Shown: piece after piece, positions 1 to 49,126 of the stretch
Layout of the letters: every line of letters begins with the position of its first letter
How positions within the stretch are numbered: the first letter of the stretch is position 1
NCBI GenBank assembly: GCA_963755915.1
Contig: CAVWLP010000002.1
Span: forward strand, 1,920,001-1,984,000
Source of the DNA: an uncultured Phycisphaerales bacterium
Lineage (GTDB): Bacteria; Planctomycetota; Phycisphaerae; Tepidisphaerales; Tepidisphaeraceae
Direction: 5' to 3'
Length of the DNA stretch: 64,000 nucleotides
The notes under the pieces: generated by a model
What the model was told of the DNA's origin: nothing
The model's input: only the letters and a program-made list of their open reading frames with translations
Databases searched by the model: none
Made by a program: the position numbers and the translations under genes

Positions 1-1404
1 GTGTTCACCGGGTTCAATCCGTTTCTGGCGCTGCGGGTCATTTTTCAGGCTAACGACTATCTTCCGCCAAACCTCGCGGACCTGCCGGCGAATTACCAAT
101 CGTGGCCCGTCGGTTGGTTCTGGACCAGTCCCGCGTCGTTCTATATCTGCTTCATGCTTTCCCTGAGTCTGGCGATGACGATTCCGTCGGTGCTGCTGCT
201 GCGGCGATTGGCGCAATCGACGACCTCGCTGCGGAGCTGGTTTTTGCAGCTCATTCACGTCAGCAAGGGCGACCGCTCGCGCAAGCCGCGGCCGGTGTGG
301 CATAACCCCATCGCCTGGCGGGAAGCGAAAACCAAAGCCTCCGCGGCTCGCGCCACCGTTTTGCGCTATGGGTTCATCATTGCGGGGATGATCGGGGCGG
401 TGGTGCTGGTGGTGATGCACAGCACGGAAGAGAAGCCGCCGATGTATATCGATCACAGCAGCTTCGACAACACCAAGAACACGCTCTATATCGACGGGAG
501 CAACAAGCCGGAGATGGTGGTGTCAAGCAACGTGGAGGTGAAGATCAACCAGAACGACGCGAGCCAGGATGCGCTCTATGGCAAATACCAGGTGACGAAC
601 TATACGCAGGACGGCACCGGCGCGATTGCCACGATTGATTTAGCGCCCTATCCGCGCGAGCTGAGCGAAGAGCAGGCGCGGAACTGGCTGCTGGGGCTGA
701 GCATCGTGGAGTTTTCGGTGATCCTGCTGATCATCTCCAACGCCGCCGCCAGCACGGTGACGCGCGAGAAGGAGGACGGTACGCTGGACCTGCTGCTTTC
801 GACGCCGATCACCAGCCGGTACTACATCTGGGGCAAGCTGCGCGGCTTGGTGGCGTTTGTGCTGCCGCTGATCGCGGTGCCGTTCGCGAGCTGCCTGATT
901 TTCATCTTTCACGACCTGACCCGCTGGCTCGCCGAGCACGACAGCAGCTTTCAGTGGATCGTCTTCCCCGAAGCGATCCTGATGATGCCGGCCATGCTGA
1001 TCATCGTCTGCGCCTTCGCGGCGATTCTGGGGATGCAGATGTCCCTGCGCTGCCGGACGACGGTGCGGGCGGTGATGAGCAGCATCGGCATCATCGTTGG
1101 GGCATGTGCCGGATTGGGATGGTGCGGCTACACAGTCCTGAATTCCCAGGTGCCGCCGGCGATGGCCGTGGCCATCGGGGCGCTGAGTCCCTTCACGGTC
1201 CTGACGATCCTGATCAACCCCTACCAGTTCGGCGGCGACGGGTTTAACGTGAACGGCGGAACCAACTACGACCCGGTAACCGCCCGGCTCGTGGCGTTTA
1301 TCTTCTGCATCCTGGCCATCGCGGGATATGCGGCGATTATCTGGTCGATGTATAAGTCGATGGTGAAGAATTTTGATATGACGATTCGGAAGCAGTCGAG
1401 ATAG
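1..1404 (+). CDS. ABC-2-type transporter permease subunit (5'-partial, begins upstream of window)
   Basis: Multiple hydrophobic segments plus the motifs 'NPIAWRE' and 'STVTREKEDGTLDLLLSTP...IWGKL' typical of ABC-2 permeases; frame open from base 1. Confidence 0.85.
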   Translation: MFTGFNPFLALRVIFQANDYLPPNLADLPANYQSWPVGWFWTSPASFYICFMLSLSLAMTIPSVLLLRRLAQSTTSLRSWFLQLIHVSKGDRSRKPRPVWHNPIAWREAKTKASAARATVLRYGFIIAGMIGAVVLVVMHSTEEKPPMYIDHSSFDNTKNTLYIDGSNKPEMVVSSNVEVKINQNDASQDALYGKYQVTNYTQDGTGAIATIDLAPYPRELSEEQARNWLLGLSIVEFSVILLIISNAAASTVTREKEDGTLDLLLSTPITSRYYIWGKLRGLVAFVLPLIAVPFASCLIFIFHDLTRWLAEHDSSFQWIVFPEAILMMPAMLIIVCAFAAILGMQMSLRCRTTVRAVMSSIGIIVGACAGLGWCGYTVLNSQVPPAMAVAIGALSPFTVLTILINPYQFGGDGFNVNGGTNYDPVTARLVAFIFCILAIAGYAAIIWSMYKSMVKNFDMTIRKQSR

Positions 1405-1784
1405 ATATTTTCGGGGCCCGCCTTCATTTCGCGCTCGGGGGCATCGGGTACAAAAGGTAACAGTCCGCAACAAGCTGGGGAAGATGGGTAAAATAGGGGA
1501 GCTATTTCGGGGAATTTGGTCATTGTTTATATTCTATTGTGTCCGTTCAATGATGTGGGGTCGCGGGGAAATTCGAAACTCGAAAGGGGTGCGGTGCTCG
1601 TCGGGGCATCCGAAGAAGATAACCGCAAAGGCGCCAAGGACTCAGAGTAGAAATGGCGGCAGGTTTCGCGAGGCGGCGGAGGTCCGGACGTTTGTCCATC
1701 TCGCTTTTTCATCAGCATCGGCCGCGCGGTCGGGGCGGGAATTGATGCCGTTTTGGCCCCGCATTGGCATCATACCTTCGCTAT

Positions 1785-3038
1785 TCATTGATCCGAGGCG
1801 ACTTGAATCGCGCGATACGTTCGCGTCGGCGTTGTGTCGTCGAAACGGAGCACTGGATGACCGTCTGGCATGATCCTAACCCAAGGATCGGAAAGCTCTG
1901 AATCTGTAAAGGTCCACGGAGTACACACATCCCCGTTTGGTGGTGAGAAATGGAGCGAGGCGCGATCTTGGCTTAGGATTAGATAGCCGTTGGCGAATAT
2001 TCGGAGGCTGGTAATGCGTTCAGCGACACTTGCGTTTACAAAGACTGCGACCCAGGCTTCATCCAAATCTTTGAGCGTCAGCTGATCGGGATCGTTGGCG
2101 AATTCACTGAAGCCGCCGCTCGCGCCAATCGACTCGATACGATCTGGCTTTATTCTTGCCGCCGTTGAGATCGTGCGTCTCTGCGATGCGACGGCAGGCT
2201 CGGTCGCTTTAGCCTCACTTTCACTGATCTGTTCCGACCAGAACGCGCTGAGGATACAATTACGCGCTCCTCCCGAGAATGTGGTTTCACGAATTTTCGT
2301 CTCATTGCACGTAGCTAGCATCAATGCTTGGTGAGCACTCAAAATTCCTGGTCGTTCAATACAGAGCAACGCTCGAAAATGGGCGTCCACCTCGATCGGC
2401 CCACTCAGCCTTAGGCGAAAGAAAAGACTTCGTAGGGGTCGGCTCTGTTCCAGCAAAAACTCAATTCGCGCTAAACGGTCCTCAACTTTATTGATGGTGC
2501 TTTCGATTGCCGACTGAATTCTGACGCCCCAACGATTGAAAAAGGTGGCCTGTTCAGCGTCGCTCAGTGCGATTCCTAGGAATTGGAATCGGATAGCCAG
2601 TCCATCCGTTCCATCGAGTAATAGACGAATACGTTCACGGTCGAAAAGTTCACAGTCATTGAAACCCAGTTTTTTTACTTCTCTTATGACGGCATCTCGT
2701 TTTTGGACCGAGAAATTGACATTGGTCATGAACCCAAAGCAGCAATTTTCGGGTTTATTCACAGCCGCCTTCTCAGCATCATCAACCATTTTCCCAAATG
2801 CCCACCGCCGGTCTGCGGGCGAATCGGACACCGAATTTCGGAAGCCCACTCCAATTCGCCAAGGACGCCGCTGCGCGTCTAGGCACTCCATATCCCAACC
2901 GCCGTCTGCGCCGCCTCTGGGTTGGCGTTCCTCAACTTTCTGAAAACGACCGTCAACGCCCAGCACGCCCGCGCACATCCGTTCTCTGCTGAGTTGATTA
3001 CTGTCAAGCCAAGACCGAAGTCGCTCGTCTGTCATCAT
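1785..3038 (-). CDS. Hypothetical protein with N-terminal PD-(D/E)xK restriction-endonuclease-like domain
   Basis: 417-aa ORF; N-terminus 'RERMC...PRGGADGGWD...F.TN...ELFDRERI' follows the E...DGGxD...F.TN pattern of Mrr/REase-like domains; codon usage differs from the GC-rich core. Confidence 0.55.
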   Translation of the reverse strand: MMTDERLRSWLDSNQLSRERMCAGVLGVDGRFQKVEERQPRGGADGGWDMECLDAQRRPWRIGVGFRNSVSDSPADRRWAFGKMVDDAEKAAVNKPENCCFGFMTNVNFSVQKRDAVIREVKKLGFNDCELFDRERIRLLLDGTDGLAIRFQFLGIALSDAEQATFFNRWGVRIQSAIESTINKVEDRLARIEFLLEQSRPLRSLFFRLRLSGPIEVDAHFRALLCIERPGILSAHQALMLATCNETKIRETTFSGGARNCILSAFWSEQISESEAKATEPAVASQRRTISTAARIKPDRIESIGASGGFSEFANDPDQLTLKDLDEAWVAVFVNASVAERITSLRIFANGYLILSQDRASLHFSPPNGDVCTPWTFTDSELSDPWVRIMPDGHPVLRFDDTTPTRTYRAIQVASDQ

Positions 3039-3044
3039 CGACGT

Positions 3045-4468
3045 CTACCTTACGTTCTGATGTCGCCGGACTCGATTGATATTGAAGATTGTTTCGCCCA
3101 AACTAACCTCGCCGGGCAGCCCAAGGGACAGGCGTAGGTCGTCGAGGATATCAACGAAGAGCCGGTGCCATTCATTCAACGATAGCTTAGCCGGCGGCAC
3201 CAATATCTCTTTTACTGATTCCTCCAACAAATTAGCTCGCGCGGATTTGATTCGAAGGCACACGACTTTATCGAATTCTATTCTTTTAGTCGGGTCAGTC
3301 AGTCGCCATTCAAAAGCAAGCTCTAAATATCGTAGCAGTCCAATTAGGATTCGACCGTCCCCAAACTCCTGTAGACCAATGTACGCCTGCCGGATAACGC
3401 CGTCGCGAACGAAATCTGGACAATTACGTTCCGCGTGATCAATTTGCGCTGCCACGCATTGTGATGGTGCACGGAAATCTCTTCGGCGGCATTTTTCACT
3501 AGCTGTCGCGACACTCGGCCAGACTGGATTGCCTTTAGACGTGCGGCCAATTTGCAGTTGAATTCGCGCGGCAGGGGTTCAATCGAAGTGTCAGTGCCTT
3601 TTAAAATGCCGCTGACAACCAAAAATGTAAAAGGGGCACCGCGCCAATCCCTGCAAAGGCGAAAACCATAAGGATCGATTCCGGCTATCCACCAGACGGC
3701 ATCGATGGTTTTTGTAGCTTGGTTAGCGGACGCAACCATCAAATGCTCAAAGGCGGTAATTGGCTTTGTCGAGGCATCCCGTACTTGCTGCAATTCCGCG
3801 ATTTTGTCGTATTGGATTCCCATCACAATCTCTTCGTAGGAATCGTCATCCAGCTTTCGGTGCAAGACAAAGTCTTTTACCAAATCTCGTGCGATCGAGA
3901 GATCGGCTGCGCGGGTGAAGCGATTTGGGCTGTCAAAAAGGAGATGATCGAAAGTCAGCAAAATCGATTTAAGAGCTGCAATCTCCACGTCTAAATCAAA
4001 CAGCGGAACCTCGATGGTTGCGATCCCGAGTTTCGGGGGCGGAATGACCTCAATTTTCATCGGCCGATCAAACTGGCGAGCAATCCTTTTGGGGTCGCGT
4101 CCAACAACGGAGGTTACCTTGTGGGTAAGTGGATCGCGCTCCTCAATGTCTCGTTTTCGACTGAACCTGCCCTGTTTGTCGAATTCGTACTGGCCCTTAT
4201 CGCCGCGGACAGACGCCGGAACGGTCGGGGGTTTATGAGAACTCGGTGTGCTTAAGCCAAGCCGATTAAATGCCGGCGCGAATACTTGCGCAAGTTTCAA
4301 ATCGACGCTATCTCCTGCCGCCTCGTTAAAGCGATTTGAAGACATACGCTTGCTTTTTATTCTGCCTCCGACCGATTGGGGAATCGTGTGCTCGTACTTC
4401 GTTTTCAGAGAGAGTACGTCGCCAGTAAATAGACATGTCGCAGTAGAGCACGATTTCATGGTCTGCAA
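3045..4468 (-). CDS. HNH-endonuclease-domain protein (split by a frameshift near 3445)
   Basis: N-terminal 'CLFTG...EHTIPQSVGG...SNRFN' is an HNH-type signature; ORFs 3344..4468 and 3045..3455 overlap and read as one protein across a single frameshift. Confidence 0.6.
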
Positions 4469-4594
4469 TCATCACTCCCACTGTTTCGCGTGTGGCATAG
4501 TGATCGGCCTTGGTGTTGCAAGGCGGCTCGACGATATTCTATTAGGACTATATGGCTTCGTCGCTACCGCCACCGGTCGGGCGAGCGGGGCCAA

Positions 4595-4624
4595 GACGTG
4601 ATCGCATGTCGAAAGGCCCACGTC
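4595..4624. repeat. 30-bp imperfect palindromic site, copy 1 (GACGTGATCGCATGTCGAAAGGCCCACGTC)
   Basis: 23/30 identical to 10015..10044; GACGTG...CACGTC arms; intergenic between the HNH and FRG genes. Confidence 0.7.
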
Positions 4625-4728
4625 GTCGGTCCACCGCCCCACTTGCAGGATGGCCAATGGAGGGGCGCGCTGTCGCAATTCTGAACTCAATTTGACGTAC
4701 TCAAATAGTTGTTTAGCTTGTTCCAGGC

Positions 4729-5658
4729 ATGGCCGATCCGAAATATAGAACCCATGAAACGCCAGTTTCCACCTTATCTGGGTTTATTGAGTGCGTTGAC
4801 GAGCAGAGATGGAACGCATTTCTCGCAGGAAAGAAAAGCGATTTTTTCTTTCGGGGTCTGCAGGAGGATTTGCCGTTACAGCCGAAGGTCGGGTGGATGG
4901 AGTGGCACGGCGACAGATTTAAATTAGAGCGCCTTGTGCTCGAAGAATTCGAGCGTACGACGCCGCGGATTGCGCGGCTGACGATGAGCAGCGATTGGGA
5001 TCTTATGGCCGTCGCTCAGCATCACGGATTGCCGACCAGGTTGCTGGACTGGAGCCAGAGCGCGGTTGCGGCGCTTTGGTTCGCTGTCAAAGACGGCGCG
5101 AAAAGAAACAAATCAAATAACAAAAAGAAATGTGGCGTTGTTTGGATTCTGAAGCCTGACGTCGGCGATTTTCTGAATGGAGATGACTTAAGAAGGCAAT
5201 CACCGTTCAAAATAACTCGAAGTAGGATTTTCCGGCCGCGAGTCATTGCGGATCGAATTCATGCGCAGTCTGGCGTGTTTACAGTTCACGCGAGCGCTCA
5301 CTCTAGCGGTGGCGAGCGCCTAATTCCTTTGGAGGTAAATTCAATTTTCACCAAGAAACTGTACAAGATTCCAATTTCGCCCGACGGATTCGAGCGGATC
5401 CGCGAGCAGCTATAAGTCTGTGGCATAAACGAGGCTACTCTTTTTCCTGATTTAGATGGATTTTGCAGGCACCTCAGATGGAGATATACGCGGGAGACGA
5501 AAGATAGCGGCGATATACCAGATGCACGAATTCTTGCCATTCTAAATGAATTTCACTTGAAAGCGAAAGCCGGTAATTGCACCGCTCGAGGGCGTGTGCG
5601 CGCTTACTTGGGCGTCCTTGGGCATCGCGGCGGTCTAGGGAATACGGACATAATGTGA
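4729..5658 (+). pseudogene. FRG-domain protein with in-frame premature TAA at 5413..5415
   Basis: 'FFFRG', 'AQHHGLPTRLLDWS' and 'RIHAQSGVF' are FRG motifs; the family C-terminal motif 'GINEATLFPDLDG' follows the TAA in the same frame; next stop at 5656..5658. Confidence 0.8.
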
Positions 5659-6023
5659 GGCCTAGCTTTCAGGGGGTGTTGCCGACAATTGACAGGTGAT
5701 TTTCGGTAAAGTGTCGGGCGCACCCATTCATGATTCATAAAGTTCCTAAGAGACGGCCACCGCACCTTAAGAAACAGGAAGAATGCCATTGCCCAAATCC
5801 CCCATCTCGCCCAGTTTGATGCGGACTGTCCAATTTTGTATTTGAGTGTTCGGCGGCAAATCGTTGACTCCGCCGCTCACGCTCGCGTCGTGAGGCACAT
5901 TAACTCTCGCCAATGAAACCAGCGCATGAGCGCTTATCGATGTCAGTCATCACTTCAAATGCCACCACCGATCATCGGATCAAATGCCACCACGTCCGAT
6001 ATATCGCAATCGACCGTCCCATT

Positions 6024-6935
6024 TCAAATTGACGCCGAGTTGTTGACTACCGGCGAGGCCGCTTCGGCAGGCTGAACCCCCACGCCAGAAGACAATGGCT
6101 TTCTGGCATCGGTGTCTTCCGGAGGGGAAAGCCCTTCATCGCCGCCGGTACTCCGGCGTCCTCGCGGTTTGGTGGATTCGATGCTTTCAGCGGTAGGCTT
6201 CGCCTCCGCGGCACGGTCTCGCAACCGATAGCTTCTGCCGGTGATCGCGATCACCTCGGCGTTGTGCAGGAAGCGATCGAGGATTGCCGTGGCGGCCGGT
6301 ACGTCGCCGATCAATTTGCCCCAGTCTTCGAGCGGCCGGTTGCTGGTCATCATGGTGGAGCGAACCTGGTAACGCCGCATGATGATCTCGAAGAGATATT
6401 CGCCGGAGCGTTTGGGCAATTGCTTCATGCCCATATCGTCGATGATGAGCAGATCGGGCCGGAGATACCGCTCCATGATTTTGTCCTGCTGGTTGAGGGC
6501 CTCATCGTGCAGGAAGTCGCGCACCACGTCGAAGATCGAGCGGTAAAGCACGACCGATCCGTTCTTGATGGCTTGGTATCCCAGTGCCTGGGCGATGTGA
6601 CTTTTTCCCAGACCCGGCGGCCCGATCAGCAAGACATCCCGCGCCTCGCGGATGAACCGGCCGGTTGCCAGCTCGAAGATCTGCTTGCGTTTGACCGACG
6701 AGTTGAAGGAAAAGTCGAACTCGTCGAGGGTCTTGAGTTCCCGAAAGCCCGCGATCTTGACGCGCCGGGCGATCAGGCGTTCATTGCGAATGAGCAATTC
6801 ATCCTGAAGCACCAGTTCCAAAAACTCGCCGTGGGAAAGCTGATGGCCGGCGGCTTCCTGCAAGCGCACGTCCAAGGTGGAGGCCAAGCCCGAAAGCCGA
6901 AGGCGGGTCAGGGCGGTTCGTAACGATTCGTTCAT
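6024..6935 (-). CDS. istB: IS21 helper AAA+ ATPase IstB
   Basis: Walker A GPPGLGKS, Walker B LLIIDD, 'TSN', 'ILDR...G.SYRL'; AAGGAG RBS before the ATG. Confidence 0.95.
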   Translation of the reverse strand: MNESLRTALTRLRLSGLASTLDVRLQEAAGHQLSHGEFLELVLQDELLIRNERLIARRVKIAGFRELKTLDEFDFSFNSSVKRKQIFELATGRFIREARDVLLIGPPGLGKSHIAQALGYQAIKNGSVVLYRSIFDVVRDFLHDEALNQQDKIMERYLRPDLLIIDDMGMKQLPKRSGEYLFEIIMRRYQVRSTMMTSNRPLEDWGKLIGDVPAATAILDRFLHNAEVIAITGRSYRLRDRAAEAKPTAESIESTKPRGRRSTGGDEGLSPPEDTDARKPLSSGVGVQPAEAASPVVNNSASI

Positions 6936-6945
6936 AAATCTCCTT

Positions 6946-8597
6946 TCAAAAAAGTGGAGGCTTTGCCTCCACGGGGGTGTTATCGAAAGCGTCATGGACC
7001 AGTTGGGAGTAATCCGAAAGCGACCGGATCAGGGGATGCTCGGCGACGAACTCGAACTGTTGCTGTTGCGCGGCGGATTCCGATCGTTTCAGCAGATTGC
7101 GGATGTCGCGCAGCCGATGGGTGCCGTGCCCTTGAGCCACCTGACAGGCCTGTTCGATCATTTTGGCGGGATGGCGATGCGTGAGACTGACCAGCCCCAT
7201 CACCACGCGCAAGGCGTGAATCCCCCGGCAATTCAGGACATTTTCAGCCCATTGGCCGGCGTGGGGACCGATGGCGCTGGCCTTGTTCATCCACCAGGCC
7301 GCGCCGCGTTCGATCCCGCCGCGCTTCTCGGGAACGATGTGACGATCATCGGTGGCGAAGCGTCCCGGCTCGTGCTGAACGTGGATGGCAACCTGCCGAA
7401 GCTGAGAATCAAAGAGCCGGACGACGTGCCCGTCCCAGCGCGCCCAGATGGTCCGGCCGAGGAACTCCGGCGGCGCCGAGTAATACGCCTTGGCCACCTC
7501 CACGTGGCCATCACGGTTGACGATCCGCTGGGCTTCCTGAAAACAGGGGAACCGTCCCGGCGGAAGAGGCAATAGCGCCGGCTTCTCCACTTCCGCGAAC
7601 ATCCTCGCCACCTGCTTGCGCGTGGTGCCATGAATGCGCGTGTCGGCGATGGTCGATTCCCATTCGGCCAGGAATTGGTTCTGCTCGGAAAGGCTCTTGA
7701 AGGTTCGGGCCTTGAGAGCATTCCCCTGGGCGTATCCGACGCCGCGTTCGATCTTTCCCTTGTGCCGTGGCGTCCTTGGGCGCGTCGGCAAAATGACGGT
7801 GCCGTAGTGACGCGCGAACTCCTGAATCTTGGGATTCAGATCGGGATCGTACCAGTCGGCATGGGTGACGGCCGCTTTGAGATTGTCGATCACCAGAGTT
7901 CTGGGAACACCGCCGAAGTGAATGAAGGCGTTTTCGATGCAGCGGATGAACTGCTCGGTGGTCTGCCGGGGCGTCACTTCGCTGTAGGCTTTGCGCGAGC
8001 AGCTCAGCACGATGCGGAACAGGTGGGGACGGGTTCGTTTGCCGTCGGGTGTGACGAGGGGCGCGCCCTTGCCGAAGTCCACCTGGGCCTCGGCGCCGGG
8101 GCGCATTCCATTCGCCGATAGGGCAATCCGTTGGTTCCGGCACGGTTGAGCCGCTGGACAAATCGCTGGACCGGTTGGTAAGGACCGTCGAAGCCATGAT
8201 CGGCAGCCAAGTCCTGCCAGATACGCTTGGCCGTCAGGCCTTGCTCAAGACCCTGAAGGATGACGGCGCGCCATGGCTCGCACTGGCTGTGACGGCCGGA
8301 AAACCCGGTAATCGAAATGGCGGCATTTGAACCGACAGATTCCGCCTCGCCGTGCATTGACCCGGTCATCGGAATGGTGGCATTTGCCTCCGATCTGACC
8401 TCGGACCCGGCAATCAGAATGGCGGCATCTGGATCCGGCGGACCTGCACCGGGTGGTTCGATCACCGCGGATTTAATGTGACGAGAGACCGTCTCCCGGT
8501 CGATGCCCAGTTCCGCGGCGATCCGGCGATACGACCAGTTCAGTCGCGCAAGTCCCAAGATTGTCTGATGTTCCGCCATTGTGAGCCGATTCGACAT
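6946..8597 (-). CDS. istA: IS21 transposase IstA (1-bp homopolymer frameshift near 8100)
   Basis: HTH N-terminus, 'EAQVDFG', 'DNLKAAV', 'KGKIER'; G4 here versus the corresponding C5 run in the intact copy at 47464..49116. Confidence 0.93.
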
Positions 8598-8762
8598 CCG
8601 CAAGCTCCCACCGGCGAGCAGCCGGGAAGCTTACGGACCGAATCTGCGCCTCTCCAAAATGGCGGCATTTGAAGTGATGTTACGTGGCGTGATTTAAGTG
8701 ATGCCTGACATCGAAGGGCTCACATCCGGGTTGGTTCCCCGCGCGATTTCTCTGGAAGATCT

Positions 8763-9770
8763 TCACGCCCCGGTGCCGCGGCGGCGCCGGCGGAGCAGGC
8801 TGGCCGATGTGGCTGCGGCAAGCAATGCGACAACCGTGGGCTCGGGCACTTGGGTATCGAATACGCCGGATTGGGACGTAAAGGTTATTCCCGCCGGCAG
8901 GTTGAAGCTCAGCGAATCGGCGAGGTTAAAACTGGCGCCAAGTCCAGCGCCGCCATTGGCGTAAAATCCAAAATTCACCTGGGGCGAGGCGCCGGTCACG
9001 GCATAGTCAGCGGTGAAGATCGCTGATCCGGGGCCGGTGTCGGTCAGGCTTTGGGAAGAAAAGCCGGAGACAGTGTCGCCGGGATTGAGGCCGGTGTAGG
9101 TGGCGCCCTGCAGGAAAGTGGCGTTGCCGCCATTGATAGTGAGGTAGGCGGTCCCGCTGCCATATCCGTTGCCAGCGGCGCCATTGCTTGAGATGGTGAA
9201 TGTGAGCGGGATTTGTGTGACCGTGCTTGGGGTCGCTCCGGGAATGTTGAACGTCAAACCATCGCTGTCTTGAGCGTAACCACCGGCGGTCGCCCCGACC
9301 GTACCGTTTCCAGTGCCCGACAATTGTATCGAAACAGTTCCCGTCGGAAGGCTGGAAGAGACGAGCGAACTGGAGGTATATCCTGCAGGCACGCCGTTAG
9401 CTTGCGATTGCACAGTCTCGGAAGTGGCGTTGCCGACGTTGTCGGTGGCGGTCGCAGATCCACTGATTGCCGCCCCGGGATCATTGTCATTGACTTCCAC
9501 TTCGTAACCAAGCCCAGCCTGGGGGGGGTCGTTCGGTGCACTGAGATTAATGTTGTAAGCGTATATCCCGCTGTCGTCGCCGTACCCGACATTCGAGTTA
9601 TCGAACACCTGGGCATGCGCCGCGACGGCCGGCAGAAGGCCAAGCGCCGCCCCAAGTACCAGAAGTCTGGCCCGGCTTGGAATCCGAGGGGTTTTCAGTG
9701 AGACATTTTGAGATGGTTTGGCCAGTTGAGATGATTTGACTGGCCGAACGATTGCATTTCCCATTTCCAC
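8763..9770 (-). CDS. PEP-CTERM sorting-domain surface protein
   Basis: Signal peptide ending 'AAHA', Gly/Ser/Thr/Asn-rich body, C-terminal 'VPEPT'+TM+'RRRRR'. Exact start uncertain. Confidence 0.9.
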   Translation of the reverse strand: MEMGNAIVRPVKSSQLAKPSQNVSLKTPRIPSRARLLVLGAALGLLPAVAAHAQVFDNSNVGYGDDSGIYAYNINLSAPNDPPQAGLGYEVEVNDNDPGAAISGSATATDNVGNATSETVQSQANGVPAGYTSSSLVSSSLPTGTVSIQLSGTGNGTVGATAGGYAQDSDGLTFNIPGATPSTVTQIPLTFTISSNGAAGNGYGSGTAYLTINGGNATFLQGATYTGLNPGDTVSGFSSQSLTDTGPGSAIFTADYAVTGASPQVNFGFYANGGAGLGASFNLADSLSFNLPAGITFTSQSGVFDTQVPEPTVVALLAAATSASLLRRRRRGTGA

Positions 9771-10014
9771 TCCTCCAGGGGCCTTGAAGGCCGCGCGAGC
9801 CGAAGAACGATTCCGACTCGAGGCATTTCAATTCCCTTTTTGCGACAAGCTATGTGCGGTTCCCGACTAACGTGAGGCGGCAATATAGTGTATGGCAACA
9901 GCGAATTGCAATCCCTTAAATCAGGGGTATTGCGGATTTTCTGTCTTTTTTTGCTTCGATGCCGCAGGGGTGGTTAGACGACCGGCACGGCTGGCTGGGA
10001 AGATAGGGAAGCGG

Positions 10015-10044
10015 GACGTGGGCGATTATCGAAGGGCTCACGTC
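10015..10044. repeat. 30-bp palindromic site, copy 3 (GACGTGGGCGATTATCGAAGGGCTCACGTC)
   Basis: Arms GGGACGTGGGC / GCTCACGTCCC around a 12-nt spacer; outer arms GGCTGGCTGG / CAAGCCAGCC extend the palindrome. Confidence 0.75.
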
Positions 10045-10054
10045 CCCAAGCCAG

Positions 10055-10131
10055 CCCCCTCCCCAGCTCCCGACAAGTCGGGACTTCGCTTCGCACAGCC
10101 TCCAATCCCCGGGGGGTGCCGGGGGCGGGGG
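10055..10131 (+). repeat. BoxC-like repeat carrying a nested palindromic insert
   Basis: CCCCCTCCCCAGC[TCCCGACAAGTCGGGA-CTTCGCTTCGCA-CAGC]CTCC...CCGGGGGCGGGGG; same ends as 10708..10747. Confidence 0.65.
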
Positions 10132-10242: not shown

Positions 10243-10665
10243 CTAATTTTCGCCGCGCTCTCTCCCCCGCCCCCGGTACTCCGGGGGAGGGTTGGGGAGG
10301 GGGTTCTCGGTGAGGGCCTGGTAGATCGTCTCCTGCACAGCCTCCGGGAATTTAAGAATCTCGTAGTCTGAAAAGCGAAGAAGTCTGATTCCCTTCGTTG
10401 CCAGCGCCTCACTTCGCCGACGGTCGTATTCAATATTTGGCTTATCCAGATGTTGGCCGCCGTCGGCTTCTACGCCGACTCCGGCCTGCAGGCAGAGGAA
10501 GTCAATGATGTAACCTGCGACGGGGACTTGCTGGCGGAAGTGGAAACCGTCGATTTGGCCTCGCCGCAGAAGGGACCAGAGTTTTTTCTCGGCGTCGGTG
10601 GGCTGTTTTCGCATGCGGCGGGCGTAGGTGATCAGCTTGCGGGAATGATCGCGTTTGCCGGGCAT
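10243..10665 (-). CDS. DUF559 / Vsr-like endonuclease-domain protein
   Basis: 'ARRMRKQPTDAEKKLWSLLR...FRQQVPVAGYIIDFLC...VEADGGQH...YDRRR...GIRLLRF' is the DUF559 signature. Confidence 0.92.
   Translation of the reverse strand: MPGKRDHSRKLITYARRMRKQPTDAEKKLWSLLRRGQIDGFHFRQQVPVAGYIIDFLCLQAGVGVEADGGQHLDKPNIEYDRRRSEALATKGIRLLRFSDYEILKFPEAVQETIYQALTENPLPNPPPEYRGRGRERGEN
10264..10303 (-). repeat. BoxC-like palindromic repeat downstream of (and overlapping the 3' end of) DUF559
   Basis: Reverse complement CCCCCTCCCCAACCCTCCCCCGGAGTACCGGGGGCGGGGG; 38/40 identical to 10708..10747 in inverted orientation. Confidence 0.88.
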
Positions 10666-10707
10666 GCGGGAAATGTTGTTGCAGACAAATGTCAACCGTC
10701 AAGTCGG

Positions 10708-10747
10708 CCCCCTCCCCATCCCTCCCCCGGATTACCGGGGGCGGGGG
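10708..10747 (+). repeat. BoxC-like palindromic repeat upstream of DUF559
   Basis: CCCCCTCCCCATCCCTCCCCCGGATTACCGGGGGCGGGGG: pyrimidine tail plus GC hairpin. Confidence 0.88.
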
Positions 10748-10779
10748 TAAGAGGGGAGGTGCCGGTTTTGTATTTGAGA

Positions 10780-12993
10780 TTACCGCGCATCAAATCTCCT
10801 CAAATCCTCCGGCAAAATCTTATCGTTCATCTCTTCGGGGATCTGCCCAGTCGGAAACATAATCGCCAGGCGGTAGTCCTCGTAGGCGAGATCGATTCGC
10901 CCGGCCGGATCACACCACACCCGGCGGATGTCGGCGAAGGGGGGAAGGTGATTGGAGAATGTTGCATCAATGGAAAGAGGAGGGTCCTCCGAGAGGGCAA
11001 GTCGAAGCCGGGTGATCCGGCCGGTGCAGTTGAAGAGAAAGAGATGGCCATGATTGTCGGAGACGAGCTGCGCGTCTTCGCCAGGCGCGCCGGCGGCTTC
11101 ATCCGGGAGATTCCAGACGATGTTTTTGCCCGGCGAGGTTTTAGTGGCAGGCGTCTGGATGGTGATGGTGATGTGCCCGTCGAAATACTGGTTGCCGGCG
11201 GCATCCGTGCAGAGGGGGGCGGGCTGGGTGGTCGGCGGTGGGAGATCGGTGACGACGGTTTGGGATTTTTCCAGGGGTTGCCAGTCGTGGTCGTTGACGA
11301 GCCAGCGGGAGTTGCCGCGGGTGAGGGCGGGCCAATCGGTTTTGGTCCAGCCGGAGCTATTGGCGGTGTCGATGAACCAGACGGCCAAGCCCGGAGCCGG
11401 GTCGGGGACGGTGGGGTCGAGGATGAGGGTGCGGTTGGTGGAGTCATCCGTGAAGAGCCAGCGTCCGCGGCTATCGATGGCCCGCAGGCGGGTGAAATCG
11501 CGCTCGGAGAGGCGAAGCAAGGGGTCGAGAGAATCCGGCGGCAGATATCGGCAGGGGCCGTAATCGGGGTTGCTGACGACCAGCTCGTCCGCCCAGGCGC
11601 TGATGATTCCCGATGCGTTGGCGAGACGATCGACGATGACCGGGGCAAGTTCCTCCGGCGGTTTGCCGGGCTGGAGGATGAGATAATCGGGGGTGACGAC
11701 GCGTGGCGTAGCGCCTTCTTCGGGGATGGTGACACCCTGCGGGGCGGTGAAGATCATGCCGCCGTCTTTCAGGCGGGTGTTGAGGGTGAGCTGGTTGCCG
11801 TTGATGGTCATGCCGCCCAAGGTGGTGCCCTGGAGAAGCTCGTGGATTCTGGCCTGGGCTTCGGGTGGGGCGTCGGAGACGAGCTTCTGGAGGATGGGAT
11901 TTATTTTCGGGCCGAACTGAGAGAGTTGCTTGTAGGCGGCGGCGCGTTTGTCGGGGTCGTCGTCGCCGAGCTGGTCGACGAGATCGGAGACGGCTTTTTC
12001 GTCGATGTCGGGGGTGTCGAGGGTGACAAAGGAGAGGGCATCGGGGCCGTCAGTCCGGCGGATTTCCAGGACGCTGCCGTCGAGATGGGGGACGAGGTAG
12101 ATGATGTCGCCGGGCCAGGAGGCGGGGTCGAGCTGTGTCCAGGCGCCGTTGAGGTATCGGGCGACGCGCGTGGAGGAGAATTTATCGTCGGCAGGAATCC
12201 AGGCGAGGATGCCGCGGGTGTCGAAGAGAACGTCTGGGGGTTGGGAGGGGCGCGTGGTGGAGGTGGGGTCTACGAGGGGGAAATAGTCTTCGGTGATTGG
12301 CGAACTTCTCGTGGTCGCGCCGTTGGCGCGGAGGAATGGGTCCTGCCTGGCAGGGGCGGGGGAAAGAGCGGAAGAGGCGATGGTGAGGATACTGACGCCG
12401 TTGTCGGTGGGGACGATGAGGCGGAGGTTGGTGCCATCCTGCCAGGTTTGGGCGAGGTCCCAATGGTAGTTGCGATGCCAGGGGATGGGAGTGGTGGATT
12501 GGGCGGAGACGATTTCAAAGCCGGAGGAATTTTTGCAGACGGCGGAGGGTTGCCAGGCGCCGTGGGAATCGAGGGACCAGATGACGTAGAAGATGGGGCG
12601 ATCGACGAGGTGCTCGCTTTCGCCGCCGGCGCGGGCGAGAACGGTGGGAAGGGGGTCGGCTTTTTTGGAGGCTATCCAGAGATCGCCGCGGGTGCAGACA
12701 AAGAGGGGTTCGGTGAGGAGGATGTGGGCGGCGTCGTTGAGATCGACGGGCGTGCCCCACGGGCGCGTGTCGGGATAGTTATGGAAGTCGGCGTGGAGAA
12801 GCTGGCCGTAGGTTTGGAGATTGGGGGCGGGAGCGGTGGTGGCGATGGATTGGGTGGTGGCCGGGAGGGTTTGGGCGACCGCGGGTTTGGGGGGTGGCGG
12901 CGGTGGGGCTTGTTGGGTGCCGAAGAAATAGAGGACGGCGCCGCCGACGATGATGGCGAGGAGGAGGGTGATGAGGAGGCGCGGGGGGGTCAT
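10780..12993 (-). CDS. Hypothetical membrane-anchored protein with a HEAT-like helical segment
   Basis: 737 aa, N-terminal TM helix, Pro/Thr linker ('PATTQS'), 'LVDQLGDDDPDKRAAAYKQLSQFG' HEAT-like repeat; strong GC3 bias on this frame. Confidence 0.75.
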   Translation of the reverse strand: MTPPRLLITLLLAIIVGGAVLYFFGTQQAPPPPPPKPAVAQTLPATTQSIATTAPAPNLQTYGQLLHADFHNYPDTRPWGTPVDLNDAAHILLTEPLFVCTRGDLWIASKKADPLPTVLARAGGESEHLVDRPIFYVIWSLDSHGAWQPSAVCKNSSGFEIVSAQSTTPIPWHRNYHWDLAQTWQDGTNLRLIVPTDNGVSILTIASSALSPAPARQDPFLRANGATTRSSPITEDYFPLVDPTSTTRPSQPPDVLFDTRGILAWIPADDKFSSTRVARYLNGAWTQLDPASWPGDIIYLVPHLDGSVLEIRRTDGPDALSFVTLDTPDIDEKAVSDLVDQLGDDDPDKRAAAYKQLSQFGPKINPILQKLVSDAPPEAQARIHELLQGTTLGGMTINGNQLTLNTRLKDGGMIFTAPQGVTIPEEGATPRVVTPDYLILQPGKPPEELAPVIVDRLANASGIISAWADELVVSNPDYGPCRYLPPDSLDPLLRLSERDFTRLRAIDSRGRWLFTDDSTNRTLILDPTVPDPAPGLAVWFIDTANSSGWTKTDWPALTRGNSRWLVNDHDWQPLEKSQTVVTDLPPPTTQPAPLCTDAAGNQYFDGHITITIQTPATKTSPGKNIVWNLPDEAAGAPGEDAQLVSDNHGHLFLFNCTGRITRLRLALSEDPPLSIDATFSNHLPPFADIRRVWCDPAGRIDLAYEDYRLAIMFPTGQIPEEMNDKILPEDLRRFDAR

Positions 12994-13004
12994 GGCAGAT
13001 TATG

Positions 13005-13114
13005 GTAAATGGCGATTGCCGATTGCCAAATGCCAATTGCCGAATGAAATCCCAGTCTGTCGGCGTCTTCTGTCTTCATTCGGCATTTGGCAATCGGCAT
13101 TCGGCATTAGTCAT
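13005..13114. repeat. Inverted pair of heptamer tandem arrays (ATTGCCR-like / CGGCATT-like)
   Basis: 'gattgcc gattgcc aaatgcc aattgcc gaatg' followed by 'cattcgg catttgg caatcgg cattcgg catt'. Confidence 0.8.
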
Positions 13115-13221: not shown

Positions 13222-14535
13222 ATGAGCAATCAATCTATCCCACGGCAGAAATTGGCGGAAACGGTGTCGGCGGCCCTGAGCAGCCAGAGCATCGTGGACA
13301 TGCATACGCATCTTTATCCCCCGACGTTTGGCACACCGGTGCCGAATGCGACGGGGAAGACCGACCCGGCAGGGCTGATGCTCTGGGGCGTGGATGAGTT
13401 GGTGACGTATCACTATCTGGTGGCCGAGGTCTATCGCGTGGTGCCGGCGACGAAGCTGCCGTACGAGCAGTTCTGGAAGATGAGCAAGCAGCAGCAGGCG
13501 GACCATATCTGGAAGCACCTGTTTGTGGAGAACACGCCGGTGAGCGAGGCTTGCCGGGGGGTGCTGACGACGCTCCAGCTTCTGGGGCTGGATCCGAACG
13601 AAAAATCGCTGGATGCCTATCGCCCGTTTTTCGCAAAGCAGGATCCGGGCAAATATATCGATAAGGTGATGGAGCTTTCGAATGTCTCGTCGATCACCAT
13701 GACCAATCCGGTCTTTGACGACAACGAGCGCGAGCGCTGGCTGAAGGGAATCCCGGCGGATTCGCGGTTCAAGGGCGTGCTGCGGATCGACCCGCTGCTT
13801 CGCGCCTGGCCGACGGCGGCGAAGAAGATGGCGGGGTGGGGATATAAGGTTTCGGAGGAGATTTCATCTTTGACCATCGAGGAGATTCAGCGGCTGCTGC
13901 GGGAGTGGATCGATCGTCAGAAGGCGATTTACCTGGCGGTGAGCCTGCCGCCGGATTTCAGATATCCGGCCGGCAATGATCCGGTTGAGAAGGCCGGCCA
14001 GACGGTTCTGGAGAAGGCGGTGCTGCCGGTGTGCGCAGAGCGCGGGTTGCCGTTTGCGATGATGATTGGGTCGAGGATGCGTGTGAATCCAGGGCTGCGG
14101 GATGCGGGAGATATGTGCGGGAAATCGGATATTCTTTCCGTGGTGAATCTGTGCCGGGAATTTCCCAAGAATAAATTCTTCCTGACGATGCTGGCCCGCG
14201 AGAACCAGCATGAGGTGTGCGTCGCGGCCAGAAAGTTCGGCAACCTGATGGTTTTCGGATGCTGGTGGTTCGTCAATAATCCGAGCCTGATCGAGGAAAT
14301 CGAGCGGATGCGGATGGAGCTTCTGGGGACCAGCTTTATTCCGCAGCATTCCGATGCGCGGGTGCTGGATCAGTTGGTTTATAAATGGACCCACAGCCGG
14401 CGGATTTTGGCGAAGGTTTTGACGGATAAATATAGCGATCTTTCGGAGACCGGCCGGCGGGTGACGGCGGAGGACATCCAGCGCGACGTTCGGCTCATGC
14501 TCAAGGACAATTTCGTAAATTTTCTGAGCCGCTGA
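13222..14535 (+). CDS. uxaC: Uronate (glucuronate) isomerase, amidohydrolase superfamily
   Basis: 'DMHTH', 'ELVTYHYLVAE', 'GCWWF' and 'HSDARVLDQL' motifs. Confidence 0.85.
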   Translation: MSNQSIPRQKLAETVSAALSSQSIVDMHTHLYPPTFGTPVPNATGKTDPAGLMLWGVDELVTYHYLVAEVYRVVPATKLPYEQFWKMSKQQQADHIWKHLFVENTPVSEACRGVLTTLQLLGLDPNEKSLDAYRPFFAKQDPGKYIDKVMELSNVSSITMTNPVFDDNERERWLKGIPADSRFKGVLRIDPLLRAWPTAAKKMAGWGYKVSEEISSLTIEEIQRLLREWIDRQKAIYLAVSLPPDFRYPAGNDPVEKAGQTVLEKAVLPVCAERGLPFAMMIGSRMRVNPGLRDAGDMCGKSDILSVVNLCREFPKNKFFLTMLARENQHEVCVAARKFGNLMVFGCWWFVNNPSLIEEIERMRMELLGTSFIPQHSDARVLDQLVYKWTHSRRILAKVLTDKYSDLSETGRRVTAEDIQRDVRLMLKDNFVNFLSR

Positions 14536-14580
14536 GGCGGGGCTTTTGACGTTTGCCCGCTGGTGTTCTACCCTTCGGGC

Positions 14581-15915
14581 ATGACGAAATTCAAAGATGT
14601 AAAAGTCCCGTCTGAGGGTCAAACGATTTCGATTTCCGGGGGCAAGCTCCAGGTGCCGGACCGGCCCGTTATCCCGTTTATTGAGGGGGATGGCACGGGC
14701 CCGGACATCTGGCGGGCGAGCCAGCGCGTCTTCGATGCGGCGGTGGAAAAATCGTACGGCGGGAAGAAGAAGATCGCGTGGATGGAAGTCTTTGCCGGGG
14801 AGAAAAGTTTCAAGCAGTTCAACAACTGGCTGCCGGACGACACGGTGGCGGCGTTCAGGGAATTTCTGGTGGGGATCAAGGGGCCGCTGACGACGCCGGT
14901 GGGCGGGGGGATTCGGTCGCTGAACGTGGCGCTGCGGCAGATGCTGGATCTTTATGTATGTCTGCGTCCGGTGCGGTATTTTAAGGGCGTCCCTTCGCCG
15001 GTGAAGAAGCCGGAGAAGGTGGATATGGTGATCTTCCGCGAGAATACGGAAGACATTTACGCGGGAATCGAATACCAGGCGGGATCGCCCGAGGCGAAGA
15101 AGATCCTCGATTTTTTTGAGAAGGAATTTCCGAAGGAATTTAAGAAGATTCGCTTCGGCATGCAGGCGGCGCTGAACGATTGGCAGGCGGCGCTGGAAAA
15201 GATCGGGGCTCCGAAGCGCGAGCTGCCGATCCAGATGGGCCTTGGACTGAAGCCGGTTTCGTATGCTGGAACGGAGCGGTTGGTGTACACGGCTATTGGG
15301 TACGCGATTAAGCACAAGCGCAAGTCGGTGACGCTGGTCCACAAGGGGAACATCATGAAGTTCACCGAGGGGGCTTTTCGGGACTGGGGGTACAAGGTCG
15401 CCAAGGATTTTTACGGGGCGGTGGAAATCGACGGCGGGCCGTGGTGCAAGATTCCTGATGGGAAGCCGGGGGCGGGGCTGGTGATCAAGGACGCGATTGC
15501 GGATATCACGCTTCAGCAGGTGCTGACCCGGCCGGAGGATTTTGATGTCATCGCCACGCTGAACCTGAACGGCGATTATCTTTCGGATGCTTTAGCGGCA
15601 CAGGTTGGCGGGATCGGGATCGCTCCGGGCGGAAATATCAATTACGTCACTGGTCACGCGGTCTTCGAGGCGACACATGGAACCGCCCCAAAATATGCCA
15701 ACCAGGACGTCGTAAACCCCGGCAGCGTCGTTCTCTCCGGCGTGATGATGCTGGAATACATGGGTTGGCAGGAGGCGGCGGACCGGATCCTTCGCGGGCT
15801 GGAGAAAGCGATTGCCGCCAAGACCGTGACGTATGATTTCGCCCGGCAGATGGAGGGGGCGAAGCAGATTAAGTGCGGCGAGTTTGGGTCGGCGATTATT
15901 GCTAACATGGATTGA
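14581..15915 (+). CDS. icd: NADP-dependent isocitrate dehydrogenase
   Basis: '[14 protein letters not shown]', '[21 protein letters not shown]', 'NLNGDYLSD', '[11 protein letters not shown]'. Confidence 0.97.
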
Positions 15916-16194
15916 ACAATTTTTGGCTTCCAAAGACGGGGCAAGCGGACGACTCGATGAGCCTTAAAGGGTGGTCCAATAAACGTGCCCGACCGAAGTC
16001 TTGATAGCCCGTCACCCTTTATCCGTTGCGGCCGCTTAGTTCGTCCGAAAAATCTGGCGGCCAGGGGCATTCAATACCCGAATAAACCTTGACACCCCGT
16101 GAAAATCGGCCTAATTTTTAGGGTGACCGGGGGTTTGGTGCGTCCGGCACGCGGGGTGAGCGGCCTCGACGTGTGGTATTCTGTAAAGTTGGCT

Positions 16195-17497
16195 ATGTCA
16201 CGCGTGCCAAATCCAAACCCGGGCTCCGGTGACAAAGGCGCTTTAGCTTCGTCCAGCTTCGATACCGAAATCGGCAAGTTCGCCGTCGACATGGGCCTCG
16301 TCACCCGCGGCGAAGTCGACTTCTGCCGGGAACAGCAGAAGCAGGCCTCCGATCCCAACCACCGCAGCCTTAGCGATCTCCTCGTAGAAAACAGTTTTCT
16401 CACCAACAACCAGGCCAAGCGTCTCCGCCAGGTGGTGGTCGACGGGAAGTCGAGCCGAATCCCGGGATATGAACTGATGAAACAGGTGGGCAAAGGCGCC
16501 ATGGCCACCGTCTATCGCGCCCGCCAAAACTCCCTCGACCGCATCGTCGCGATCAAAATCCTGCCCAAGAAAATGGGGGACAACCGGGATTTCGTGGAGC
16601 GATTCTATAAGGAAGGAAAAGCCGCCGCCCGGCTCAGTCATAACAACATCGTGCAGGCGATCGACGTGGGTGAGTCTCCCGACGGGGTTCACTATTTCGT
16701 CATGGAATTTGTGGAAGGCAAGACGCTGTACGACCTGATGGCCGCGCCGCCCGCCGGCGAGGGGAAGAGTTTTTCGGAGGCGGAGGTGCTCGACGTTGGG
16801 ATCCAGATGGCCGATGCGCTGGCCCACGCCCATCAGCGCGGGCTCATTCACCGCGACGTGAAGCCGAAGAATATCATTCTTACGCCCAAGGGCGTGGCGA
16901 AGCTGACCGATCTGGGTCTGGCGCGCCAGGTGGACGACAAGCAAGCCGCCGAGATGGAAGCCGGCAAAGCGTACGGCACGCCGTATTACATCAGCCCGGA
17001 GCAGATTCGCGGCGACGTGGACATCGATTTCCGGGCGGATATTTATTCTCTGGGGGCGACGCTTTACCACCTGGCCACGGGCCGGCCGCCGTTTGAGGGG
17101 GATACGCCATCGAACGTGATGCACCAGCATCTCAAGCAGCCGCTAGTGCCGGCGGATCATATCAACACGGCGCTTTCCGCCGGGGTGGGAGAGATTATCG
17201 ACGTCGCCATGGCCAAGCGCCGCGAGGACCGGTATCAATCGACGGAGCAGATGCTGGAAGACCTGCGGCTGGTGGCCAAGAACGAAGCCGCCGAGATATG
17301 CCCGCCGCGCCGTCGATCTGGAATCGCTGGCGAAGATTGAAGAGACGGGCAAGACCGTCGATCTGGTTCCCTCTCCGGGGCCGACGCCGGAAGGCGGTTG
17401 GCGCTCGCCGTCGGGAATGATGCTCGCCTGGGCCGCGGGGGCGGAATTATTTGTCATCCTCATCCTTGTTATTTTGCTGATTCTATTGCACAAATAG
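16195..17497 (+). CDS. Hanks-type Ser/Thr protein kinase with C-terminal TM helix (frameshift near 17290)
   Basis: GKGAMATV, VAIK, HRDVKPKN, DLGLA, GTPYYISPEQ; a hydrophobic tail 'LFVILILVILLILLHK' follows in a shifted frame. Confidence 0.88.
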
Positions 17498-17500
17498 CCC

Positions 17501-18992: not shown

Positions 18993-18994
18993 GT

Positions 18995-28164: not shown

Positions 28165-28221
28165 TTGCTTTCCTCCCTCCAAAGTAGTAGAAATTCCTAG
28201 GGAAAATTGAAATTCGGAATT

Positions 28222-28265
28222 TGCCCCCAAAGCTTCTCAAGCGGTTTGGGGGCAATTTGGGGGCA
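28222..28265. repeat. Probable integrase arm-type binding sites
   Basis: TGCCCCCAAA (28222..28231, inverted) and TTTGGGGGCA twice (28245..28254, 28256..28265) between tRNA and integrase. Confidence 0.65.
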
Positions 28266-28302
28266 GCATTGCGGGTGCGTTGCATCTGCGTTGGGAGAAG
28301 CT

Positions 28303-49116: not shown

Positions 49117-49126
49117 AAGGAGATTT

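Follow-up and report, generated by a model that had tools for sequence, protein, structure and literature searches.

Three same-orientation copies of a short palindromic sequence, here called sites A, B and C, divide a small gene array in the 64,000-nt stretch of Tepidisphaeraceae DNA analysed in this study (the window), which belongs to a 6.63-Mb assembly in three contigs that is 81% complete (G000). We found that these sites are members of a lineage-specific, low-copy family of hairpin-forming palindromes that is clustered in this genome, lies at edges of strain-specific DNA and, as far as we could check, is undescribed. As to its role, we tentatively favour, at a little short of an even chance, a foldback repeat mobilised in trans and similar to miniature inverted-repeat transposable elements (MITEs), whose copies lie at joints of accessory DNA and probably contribute to forming them, the array in the window being an old stack of such joints. 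An earlier note on this DNA had instead proposed that the sites might serve a non-integron gene-cassette capture system acting in trans. The sites occupy the following positions, the second of them being cut in two by an insertion sequence (IS) of the IS21 family:

4583..4636, plus strand: site A, where the palindromic element is worn most (30-nt core at 4595-4624; 53.7 bits with the covariance model R1 described below, which has A in its seed; fold z -0.2).
5911..5940, plus strand: left half of site B, cut at the loop by the IS21 (core part 5923-5940; placed by register alignment with A and C).
8711..8738, plus strand: right half of site B (8711-8714 is the duplicated TCGA; core part 8715-8726).
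10003..10056, plus strand: site C (core at 10015-10044; fold z -1.7; its place is taken by two sites, b and a, in G001, the relative nearest to G000 at ~90% DNA identity).

The three-site arrangement is real and more than chance. A degenerate pattern for the 30-mer matched A and C with no mismatch and had no match in 100 shuffles of the window. The earlier note had described three copies facing the same way, the middle one split so that its left 18 nt stop at 5940 and its right 12 nt begin at 8715, and the positions were borne out, as were the identities to C (23/30 for A and 24/30 for B, by hand count), the TCGAA that is invariant and identically oriented in A, B and C, and the start-to-start spacings of 1328 bp (A-B) and 1318 bp (B-C) once the IS is removed. 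Similarity among the three is confined to ~30-34 nt. Within the G000 genome the A/B/C 30-mer is confined to these three places: the right-half motif TCGAARGGCYCACRTC occurs three times genome-wide, only at A, B and C, and GACGTG-N18-CACGTC is found genome-wide at A and C only.

The 30-mer, which had been taken for the site itself, turned out to be no more than the eroded centre of a palindrome that is far longer and carries iterated boxes. Searched with up to three mismatches, it matched in 4 of 61 related genomes, and these matches exposed the longer form; 12 copies were then aligned to build the covariance model R1 used for genome searches. The palindrome has a total length of 54-150 nt, and the window sites correspond to eroded cores. 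Intact copies in relatives have two inverted arms of ~22 nt around a loop of 4-14 nt, and, flanking the arms on either side, an 18-19 nt box in one to five tandem copies, the right set being inverted relative to the left. Alignments and folds show terminal inverted repeats on a short non-coding unit, as in MITEs. From their sequence, the outer boxes look like iterated protein-binding sites; transposases and recombinases bind boxes of this kind. The variation of the loop between 4 and 14 nt speaks against a fixed double-stranded crossover site.

Folded as single-stranded DNA, an intact copy from G010 reached -33 kcal/mol (z -9.5) and a 146-nt copy from G004 -64 kcal/mol (z -14.5). Sites a and b of G001 gave -17.5 and -11.8 kcal/mol (z -3.0 and -2.4), and in the window C gave -16.1 kcal/mol (z -1.7) and A -13.4 kcal/mol (z -0.2). 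This gradient from the intact copies down to A and C indicates that the window copies are worn. The looser pairing said in the earlier note to continue outward from the cores is accordingly weak, the fold of A being no better than those of shuffles and that of C slightly better. The intact copies fold as perfect palindromes with no bulged bases, and their arms co-vary: 13 of the 22 pairs had changed on both sides, with 106 cells against 38 in shuffles and none of 500 shuffles reaching 106, in an alignment fitted to the model and including both strands. Lineage-specific subfamilies can be distinguished by their loops. In a second genus, G017 carries the same architecture in a different, A+T-richer sequence, with five dispersed copies whose 54-nt cores differ at few positions (judged by eye; identity was not computed). 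We also observed in G010 (L011:1696-1806, contig C12) two element copies that are separated by 57 nt and of which the first has lost part of its right arm; this resembles a tandem slip of core plus box.

Copies are few and clustered. In G000 the covariance model recovered six places at E <= 5e-8, five of which were seeds and one new, in addition to the split site B. They form three clusters, namely A/B/C in the window, a pair at 3077406 and 3078645 on contig C2, and a pair at 989381 and 990275 on contig C3; two further matches were weak (E 0.01-0.04). None of 200,000 simulations gave at least four neighbour gaps below 6 kb among seven random places. With ~7 copies in three clusters, the family is neither a genome-wide repetitive extragenic palindromic (REP) sequence nor an ordinary transcription-factor motif, in line with the earlier note. 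Among the relatives, the model matched 11 of the 61 genomes at E <= 0.001; 8 of these belong to the same genus, of which 12 other members were searched, and two other genera are also represented (one by the unpublished G014). Copies number 5-10 per genome. The family was not found in the remaining four genus members, which are metagenome-assembled genomes (MAGs) at 59-88% completeness, and many MAG copies lie close to contig ends. The model scan of genome and relatives that the earlier note had suggested has thus returned a low-copy, clustered, lineage-specific family.

A different, G-rich palindromic repeat (CCCCGCCCCCGG...GGGGAGGG type) lies right of site C, at window positions 10258-10304 and 10707-10757 in inverted orientation, on either side of where the intergenic region begins. 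It has ~90-120 short-BLAST hits genome-wide, in marked contrast to the palindrome family, with a contig depth of ~40x compared with ~5x nearby, and resembles the ordinary REP-type repeat of the genome.

Searches further afield returned no described counterpart of the palindrome. Rfam gave no family match, only sub-threshold matches to microRNA-like hairpins, and a full-text literature search with the core words returned, among the matches listed, primers only. A metagenome scan with the family pattern yielded 18 stretches and no new arrays; every match had the same model score as a known MAG site, and on these scores, with no direct comparison of the sequences, we take them to be the same populations. 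When a genome collection was scanned for the 11-mer arms, 38 stretches were retrieved, 29 of them outside Tepidisphaeraceae (Brachybacterium, other Actinomycetota, Gemmataceae and others). These 29 have only the 11-mer in common, stand beside ordinary genes and fall into ~15 independent groups. Such 11-nt arm-core hairpins (L034-L071) form repeat families in Brachybacterium and several Actinomycetota MAGs and occur singly in other phyla. We judged them coincidences and not relatives of the family, on a rough arithmetic that, for perfect 11-bp hairpins of every kind in 596 Gb, predicts 5-20 chance hits, with no control scan.

The array in the window, and the DNA around it, is composed of the following features:

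1..1571, plus strand: conserved left flank with an ABC-2 permease gene; homology to G001 stops at 1571.
1572..4594, minus strand: strain-specific segment left of A, with a GC content of 0.52 and open reading frames (ORFs) at 1785-3038 and 3045-4468; no homology to G001.
4729..5415, plus strand: gene for an FRG-domain protein, the cargo of module 1 and a candidate single-gene phage-defence protein (PF08867, 3e-20; PADLOC PDC-S15, 8.8e-56).
5941..8710, minus strand: IS21-family IS with istA and istB (IstB_IS21, 2.7e-67; rve; HTH) and ends TGTCAG...CTGACA.
8763..9770, minus strand: gene for a PEP-CTERM protein, the cargo of module 2 (TIGR02595, 23.2 bits against a cut-off of 16); the G001 counterpart is ~91% identical by tblastn.
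10780..12993, minus strand: conserved right-flank gene for a 737-aa protein, found in 8 of 9 genus members searched; the G001 protein is 92% identical.

The FRG and PEP-CTERM genes had both been named correctly in the earlier note, and profile matches placed them in the first and second interval, respectively. The FRG gene has a GC content of 0.51 (genome 0.59), and no close homologue of it that would speak of module mobility was found among 36 relatives. More generally, strain-specific parts and modules near sites have GC contents of 0.50-0.52, compared with 0.59. Other assignments fared less well. For the pair of genes left of A, described as HNH and restriction-endonuclease-like, neither 1785-3038 nor 3344-4468 gained sequence support for that identity from Pfam, PADLOC, NCBIfam or the PDB. 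The leads come from a language model, which places 3344-4468 with HNH_5 clusters at a high score, with recognition below the reliability mark of the tool, and 1785-3038 with Mrr_cat at a somewhat lower one. Public contigs of two runs carry an extra G after position 3444, within the ORF pair 3045-3455/3344-4468, and a frameshift in the assembly at 3444 probably divides what is a single gene at 3045-4468. On the right, the DUF559 gene that had been proposed found no match among the 40 distinct window ORFs scanned (window 1-46,726), and the real neighbour is the minus-strand gene at 10780-12993, not the plus-strand ORF 10450-13008.

Arrays of this kind recur. In seven arrays, two of them orthologous, sites stand in pairs or triplets 0.9-1.6 kb apart, and the nine intervals between paired sites hold unrelated genes: FRG; PEP-CTERM; a second PEP-CTERM-like gene; DUF1330 with a zinc-ribbon gene; a GSDH-like gene with the PEP-CTERM orthologue; a beta-propeller gene (below threshold); a TPR gene; a 266-aa protein of unassigned function; and a non-coding-looking module of 705 bp. 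Judged by eye on the asymmetry of core or arms, the sites have the same orientation in four of the seven arrays (the window, G001:C4, G000:C2 at 3.08 Mb and G004:C34), the orientation being unreadable in the other three (G000:C3, G002:C9 and G017:C10). Positions relative to genes vary, with sites upstream, downstream or between convergent genes. Most family members in relatives are single, and some adjoin core genes (hflX, a comM-like gene, ftsW). The accessory, defence-type cargo proposed earlier is borne out by candidate defence genes near sites: besides the PDC-S15 candidate in the window, genes beside single sites in G003 and G010 match the PDC-S31 and PDC-S21 candidates, and a XhoI-type methylase/endonuclease pair (N6_N4_Mtase + XhoI) adjoins site c of G001.

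Three side observations concern these neighbourhoods. The two PEP-CTERM modules have only the sorting tag and a promoter-like stretch in common; this stretch lies upstream of both PEP-CTERM genes between sites (window 9860-9930; L013:11044-11112) and contains AATTGCAATCC and TTGCAA-18-TATATT. In the same genome ATTGCAATC occurs 76 times, against ~25 expected. Finally, a conserved non-coding element of ~250 nt stands beside sites at three independent loci in G002, G003 and G010 (L116:755-1005, L117:1597-1838, L020:6891-7144 and L016:7342-7872) and is absent from G000; it carries a promoter-like TTGCGA...TAGGTT, a G-run hairpin and a doubled TGGGACATT, and in G002 a 290-bp insert, its ends inverted, has split it.

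Comparison of the window locus with G001 showed one strain difference that breaks exactly at sites, which is what the locus comparison proposed in the earlier note had looked for. The order in G001 is ABC-2 permease, XhoI pair, site c, GSDH-like gene, PEP-CTERM gene, site b, 705 bp (with an 865-bp IS5-family element), site a and the 737-aa gene. Where G000 has the single site C, G001 thus has site b, the 705-bp low-GC module (plus the IS) and site a, and C resembles b on its left side and a on its right side. The IS between a and b was considered as a part of the system and rejected, being an IS5-family element with 18 copies in G001 that is unrelated to the sites. The XhoI-type restriction-modification pair of G001 occupies the place equivalent to 1572-4594 in G000, and nothing in G001 corresponds to any of 1572-8764 (the nuclease-like genes, A, FRG and B), homology returning 27-39 bp from B, where the PEP-CTERM gene has its stop codon. 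Elsewhere, homology ends exactly at the outermost box in two comparisons (G000:C3 with G001, and G001:C5 with G000), and three further breakpoints are separated from a site by 30, 82 and 125 bp. Three different inserts lie downstream of hflX in three genomes whose flanks are 93-96% identical, with a site in only one of them. Public Logan contigs (four runs of one study, unique parts at ~2-6x) contained no joint or loose end at A, B or C, no excision joint and no contig bridging an IS-free B, at a depth so low that this decides nothing.

The IS21 inside site B is a recent and incidental insertion into the loop, because its other copies, 99.9% identical, sit at unrelated, non-palindromic targets. 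It is flanked by a 4-bp TCGA target duplication (5937-5940 and 8711-8714), and the genome holds eight other full copies and one partial copy. We therefore ruled out that it is a site-seeking element; by our own arithmetic the chance of one of nine copies landing in 210 bp of sites is ~3e-4, so that the hit is an odd one. A second full copy lies in the window at 47351-50121, and a diverged IS21-like remnant of 74% identity, with an IstB-like ORF, at 39605-41358. Public contigs of four runs carry an extra G after position 8097, and the istA ORFs 6946-8106 and 8004-8603 are probably one gene split by an assembly indel.

In the reading that we tentatively favour, the three window sites would be eroded copies of the lineage-specific, low-copy, hairpin-forming foldback repeat, and a transposase or recombinase encoded elsewhere would make and move the copies. 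These would settle in horizontally acquired DNA, or arrive with it, and the resident copies would then act as joints at which single-gene modules are gained, lost or replaced at the palindrome edge, whether because copies recombine with each other or because the palindrome breaks and is repaired. The window would represent an old, decaying stack of joints in a small flexible island between the ABC-2 permease gene and the 737-aa gene, holding the nuclease-like pair, the FRG defence candidate and the PEP-CTERM gene, with the IS21 in B as a later accident. Mobility in trans, binding of protein to the boxes and a causal role in gene turnover are what we infer in this scheme. The loop-defined lineage subfamilies, the near-identical dispersed copies of G017 and the iterated boxes are, as sequence features, suggestive of spread. 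In addition, 7 of the 14 breakpoints examined are no more than 125 bp away from a site, and all seven variable segments have a site close to one of their edges.

A number of results weigh against this reading. The prediction in the earlier note that gene content breaks at the sites was upheld only in part, the other seven breakpoints lying 0.4-3.8 kb from any site; moreover, the edge association is biased upward, since the loci were chosen for carrying sites and both sites and breakpoints favour gene ends. Only G001 is near enough, and syntenic at the window locus, for an exact comparison, and in seven other genus members both the array and the sites are missing next to the 737-aa gene. No recombinase or transposase was adjacent in the ~25 site neighbourhoods scanned, and the three G000 arrays have no protein family in common apart from glycosyltransferase paralogues. 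G004 and G002 both have a site beside the same TPR gene; over 54 nt these sites are 89% identical, compared with 72% for the gene, and a site more conserved than its neighbour would also fit a host function. Target-site duplications were not seen at the flanks inspected, no orthologous empty site was found in relatives, where the flanks differ as well, and there was no autonomous element with matching ends nor any lone arm in G000; in 37 genomes, tandem boxes occurred at palindromes or degraded copies and not around a transposase. With neither target duplication nor empty site nor autonomous partner, membership among the MITEs is therefore not established, and as the window copies are degraded (z -0.2 and -1.7), activity here is probably past.

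The proposal of the earlier note, in the form of a dedicated non-integron cassette system, would explain several of the same observations. In this model, a module consists of a gene plus one hairpin site, and a remote recombinase acts on folded or cruciform sites at the base of the stem; modules would be inserted and excised as circles at resident sites. We regard such a system as possible, though on the doubtful side. Sites do stand in runs of two or three, ~0.9-1.6 kb apart, with one or two genes per interval, and they face the same way in the four arrays that can be read by eye. At C, G001 has one module more and exactly one site more, with C b-like on the left and a-like on the right; boundaries fall at the outer palindrome edge, where attC-type exchange would place them; the cargo is of defence type and low in GC; and the loop is free in length while the arms co-vary, as expected of a site read as a hairpin. 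However, none of the ~25 neighbourhoods has a linked recombinase, and no recombinase has a matching phyletic pattern: every one of the 12 genus members, with sites or not, has both Y1 transposases and Xer-like genes. Most sites in relatives are single, two replaced segments have a site at one edge only with no site there in the other strain, the polarity of cargo relative to site is inconsistent, and the folds of the window copies are degraded. That no recombinase adjoins the array, as had been noted, was confirmed by profile scans around it. (Two tyrosine recombinase genes lie in the window at 28207-29523 and 33479-34486, at least 18 kb away and beyond housekeeping genes; they are interspersed with and flanked by GYF-domain, DUF3800 and unknown genes, come without a copy of the palindromic site and resemble a separate integrated island.) What stood of the capture proposal was that the sites are not attC, that the recombinase is not adjacent and that one strain difference is bounded by sites; the variable loop, the many single copies and the failure of any recombinase to co-occur with sites speak against it. 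On that last point, IntI was not found in G000 and elsewhere in the genus is paired with different repeats. The cassette model explains the difference of one module and one site, the outer-edge boundaries and the free loop length better than the MITE-like reading does, yet it comes without any enzyme, and a capture system in trans accounts for the data no better than a mobile palindrome of a MITE-like kind. That the hairpins are the joining sites of such a system, at whose stem base an unlinked, unrecognised recombinase or transposase inserts and excises genes, seems to us rather unlikely.

A host protein-binding site (an operator array, an insulator, a terminator, or a nucleoid or segregation site), whose cassette-like look is incidental, is in our judgement improbable, even if the iterated boxes resemble multi-protomer binding arrays and the 5-10 copies per genome, the palindrome kept by paired changes, the copies beside core genes and the G004/G002 site that is more conserved than its flanking gene would all suit it. 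The neighbours are unrelated and mostly strain-specific, so that there is no coherent regulon; position relative to genes varies; the family was not found in the four incomplete genus MAGs mentioned above; and the window copies are decaying. An intrinsic terminator in particular was rejected, as neither the whole A nor the whole C palindrome was called terminator-like and neither has a T-run; the region totalled eight terminator calls against a shuffle mean of 6.6, and the only one touching a site was a 5-pair minus-strand stem at 5934-5921 in the left half of B. Integron, dif and ordinary REP sequences are excluded as the identity of the sites. For an atypical attC cluster lacking its integrase, which we consider very improbable, one might cite the palindromic site downstream of several cargo genes, the AAC...GTT within the outer boxes and the integron integrases present in the lineage (G006 and G013). 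Against this, the best G000 match to TIGR02249 (IntI) is a Xer-like gene at 82.9 bits, far below the cut-off of 265, in an assembly that is 81% complete; the cut-off was passed in 2 of 37 genomes, namely G006, of the same genus, and G013. By eye and in the folds, the sites have no RYYYAAC...GTTRRRY boxes, no imperfect bulged stem and no unpaired central spacer, the intact stems being perfect, and gene orientation is mixed, as the earlier note had stated of the attC ends and of the orientation. The integron repeats of G006 are ~117 nt long with CATAAC...GTTATG ends and are not matched by R1, which in the three regions searched scored no higher than 17.4 bits (E 0.008), at a place in L089 on the far side of intI from the repeats, and G006 has no copy of the palindrome family at E <= 0.001.

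That G006 locus (L088; G006:C5:254000-273600) is a true integron of the same genus, with an IntI match of 372 bits, positions ~14,200-18,000 and 18,531-19,502, and upstream at least 4-6 canonical attC-type repeats of ~117 nt, including a duplicated 2-kb cassette block. A Xer/dif-type origin, with small integrated elements of the IMEX (integrative mobile elements exploiting Xer) or dif-module kind, is scarcely credible to us. The window copies can be read as a dif-like 12-6-12, the 30-mer is unique to one locus and Xer-like recombinases are present; the family, however, lies at no fewer than three loci in G000 and on many contigs in relatives, its spacer of 4-14 nt and its ~22-nt arms plus boxes differ from the ~11-bp arms and fixed 6-8 bp centre of dif, and in 4 of 12 genus members no copy was found, even though Xer-like genes are present in every one. 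GC skew was of no help to this idea, as it tracks the gene strand and is too noisy to place the terminus. REP sequences or REP doublets forming hairpins (REPINs), moved by a REP-associated tyrosine transposase (RAYT), were likewise rejected: there are ~7 good copies in 6.6 Mb, and Y1 (PF01797) genes are present in 12 of 12 genus members compared with sites in 8 of 12. What lies ~5 kb from one of the two Y1 hits in G000 (C3:1125127) is an R1 match at chance level (C3:1120228, E 1.0), not a good site; the other hit (C3:576500) is far from any.

If the palindromes are true joints for module exchange, they would add to the integrons another type of cassette delimited by hairpins, in a soil and peat lineage that has received little study; Tepidisphaeraceae would then stockpile cassettes by a second, independent route beside their true integrons, and the sites could be used to track down the enzyme by which single defence genes are moved. 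Whatever its mechanism, the family is a marker for flexible hotspots in these genomes, and it illustrates that a cassette-like look can arise from a few decaying palindromic repeats in a variable island.

Among known systems, integrons come close in several respects. Cassettes carrying phage-defence genes are described in two reports (10.1101/2024.07.02.601719; PMC12614218). Like attC sites, the palindromes are hairpins at the end of single-gene modules that form arrays with defence-type cargo, with the boundary at the outer end of the palindrome and a lineage-specific site sequence. In contrast to attC, they come without IntI, RYYYAAC/GTTRRRY boxes, bulges or an unpaired spacer, and have perfect long stems, iterated outer boxes and genes in mixed orientation; the true integron of the same genus uses other sites. 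The dif modules of Acinetobacter, flanked by XerC/D sites, are similar in being small gene modules bounded by recombination-type sites of ~28-30 bp with the enzyme encoded elsewhere (PMC12907356; PMC11705084). The palindromes differ from them in their variable spacer, much longer arms and multiple chromosomal loci, and we saw no likeness to the dif sequence, with no comparison run. Plasmid dif modules are bounded by sites in alternating orientation, whereas the window and G001 copies face the same way. With REP/REPIN sequences and their RAYTs, the family has in common intergenic palindromes with co-varying arms, an enzyme expected in trans and a genome in which Y1 (HUH) genes are common; it differs in having 5-10 copies instead of hundreds, far longer stems and no Y1 gene flanked by sites. 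The likeness to MITEs and MITE-flanked composite units lies in the short non-coding elements with inverted arms and no transposase of their own, the lineage-specific subfamilies, the near-identical dispersed copies (G017) and the ability of two copies to bracket a passenger gene. Unlike MITEs, this family has yielded no target duplication, empty site or autonomous partner and has a very low copy number; its outer boxes vary in number from copy to copy, and its whole elements stand at the edges of strain-specific DNA.

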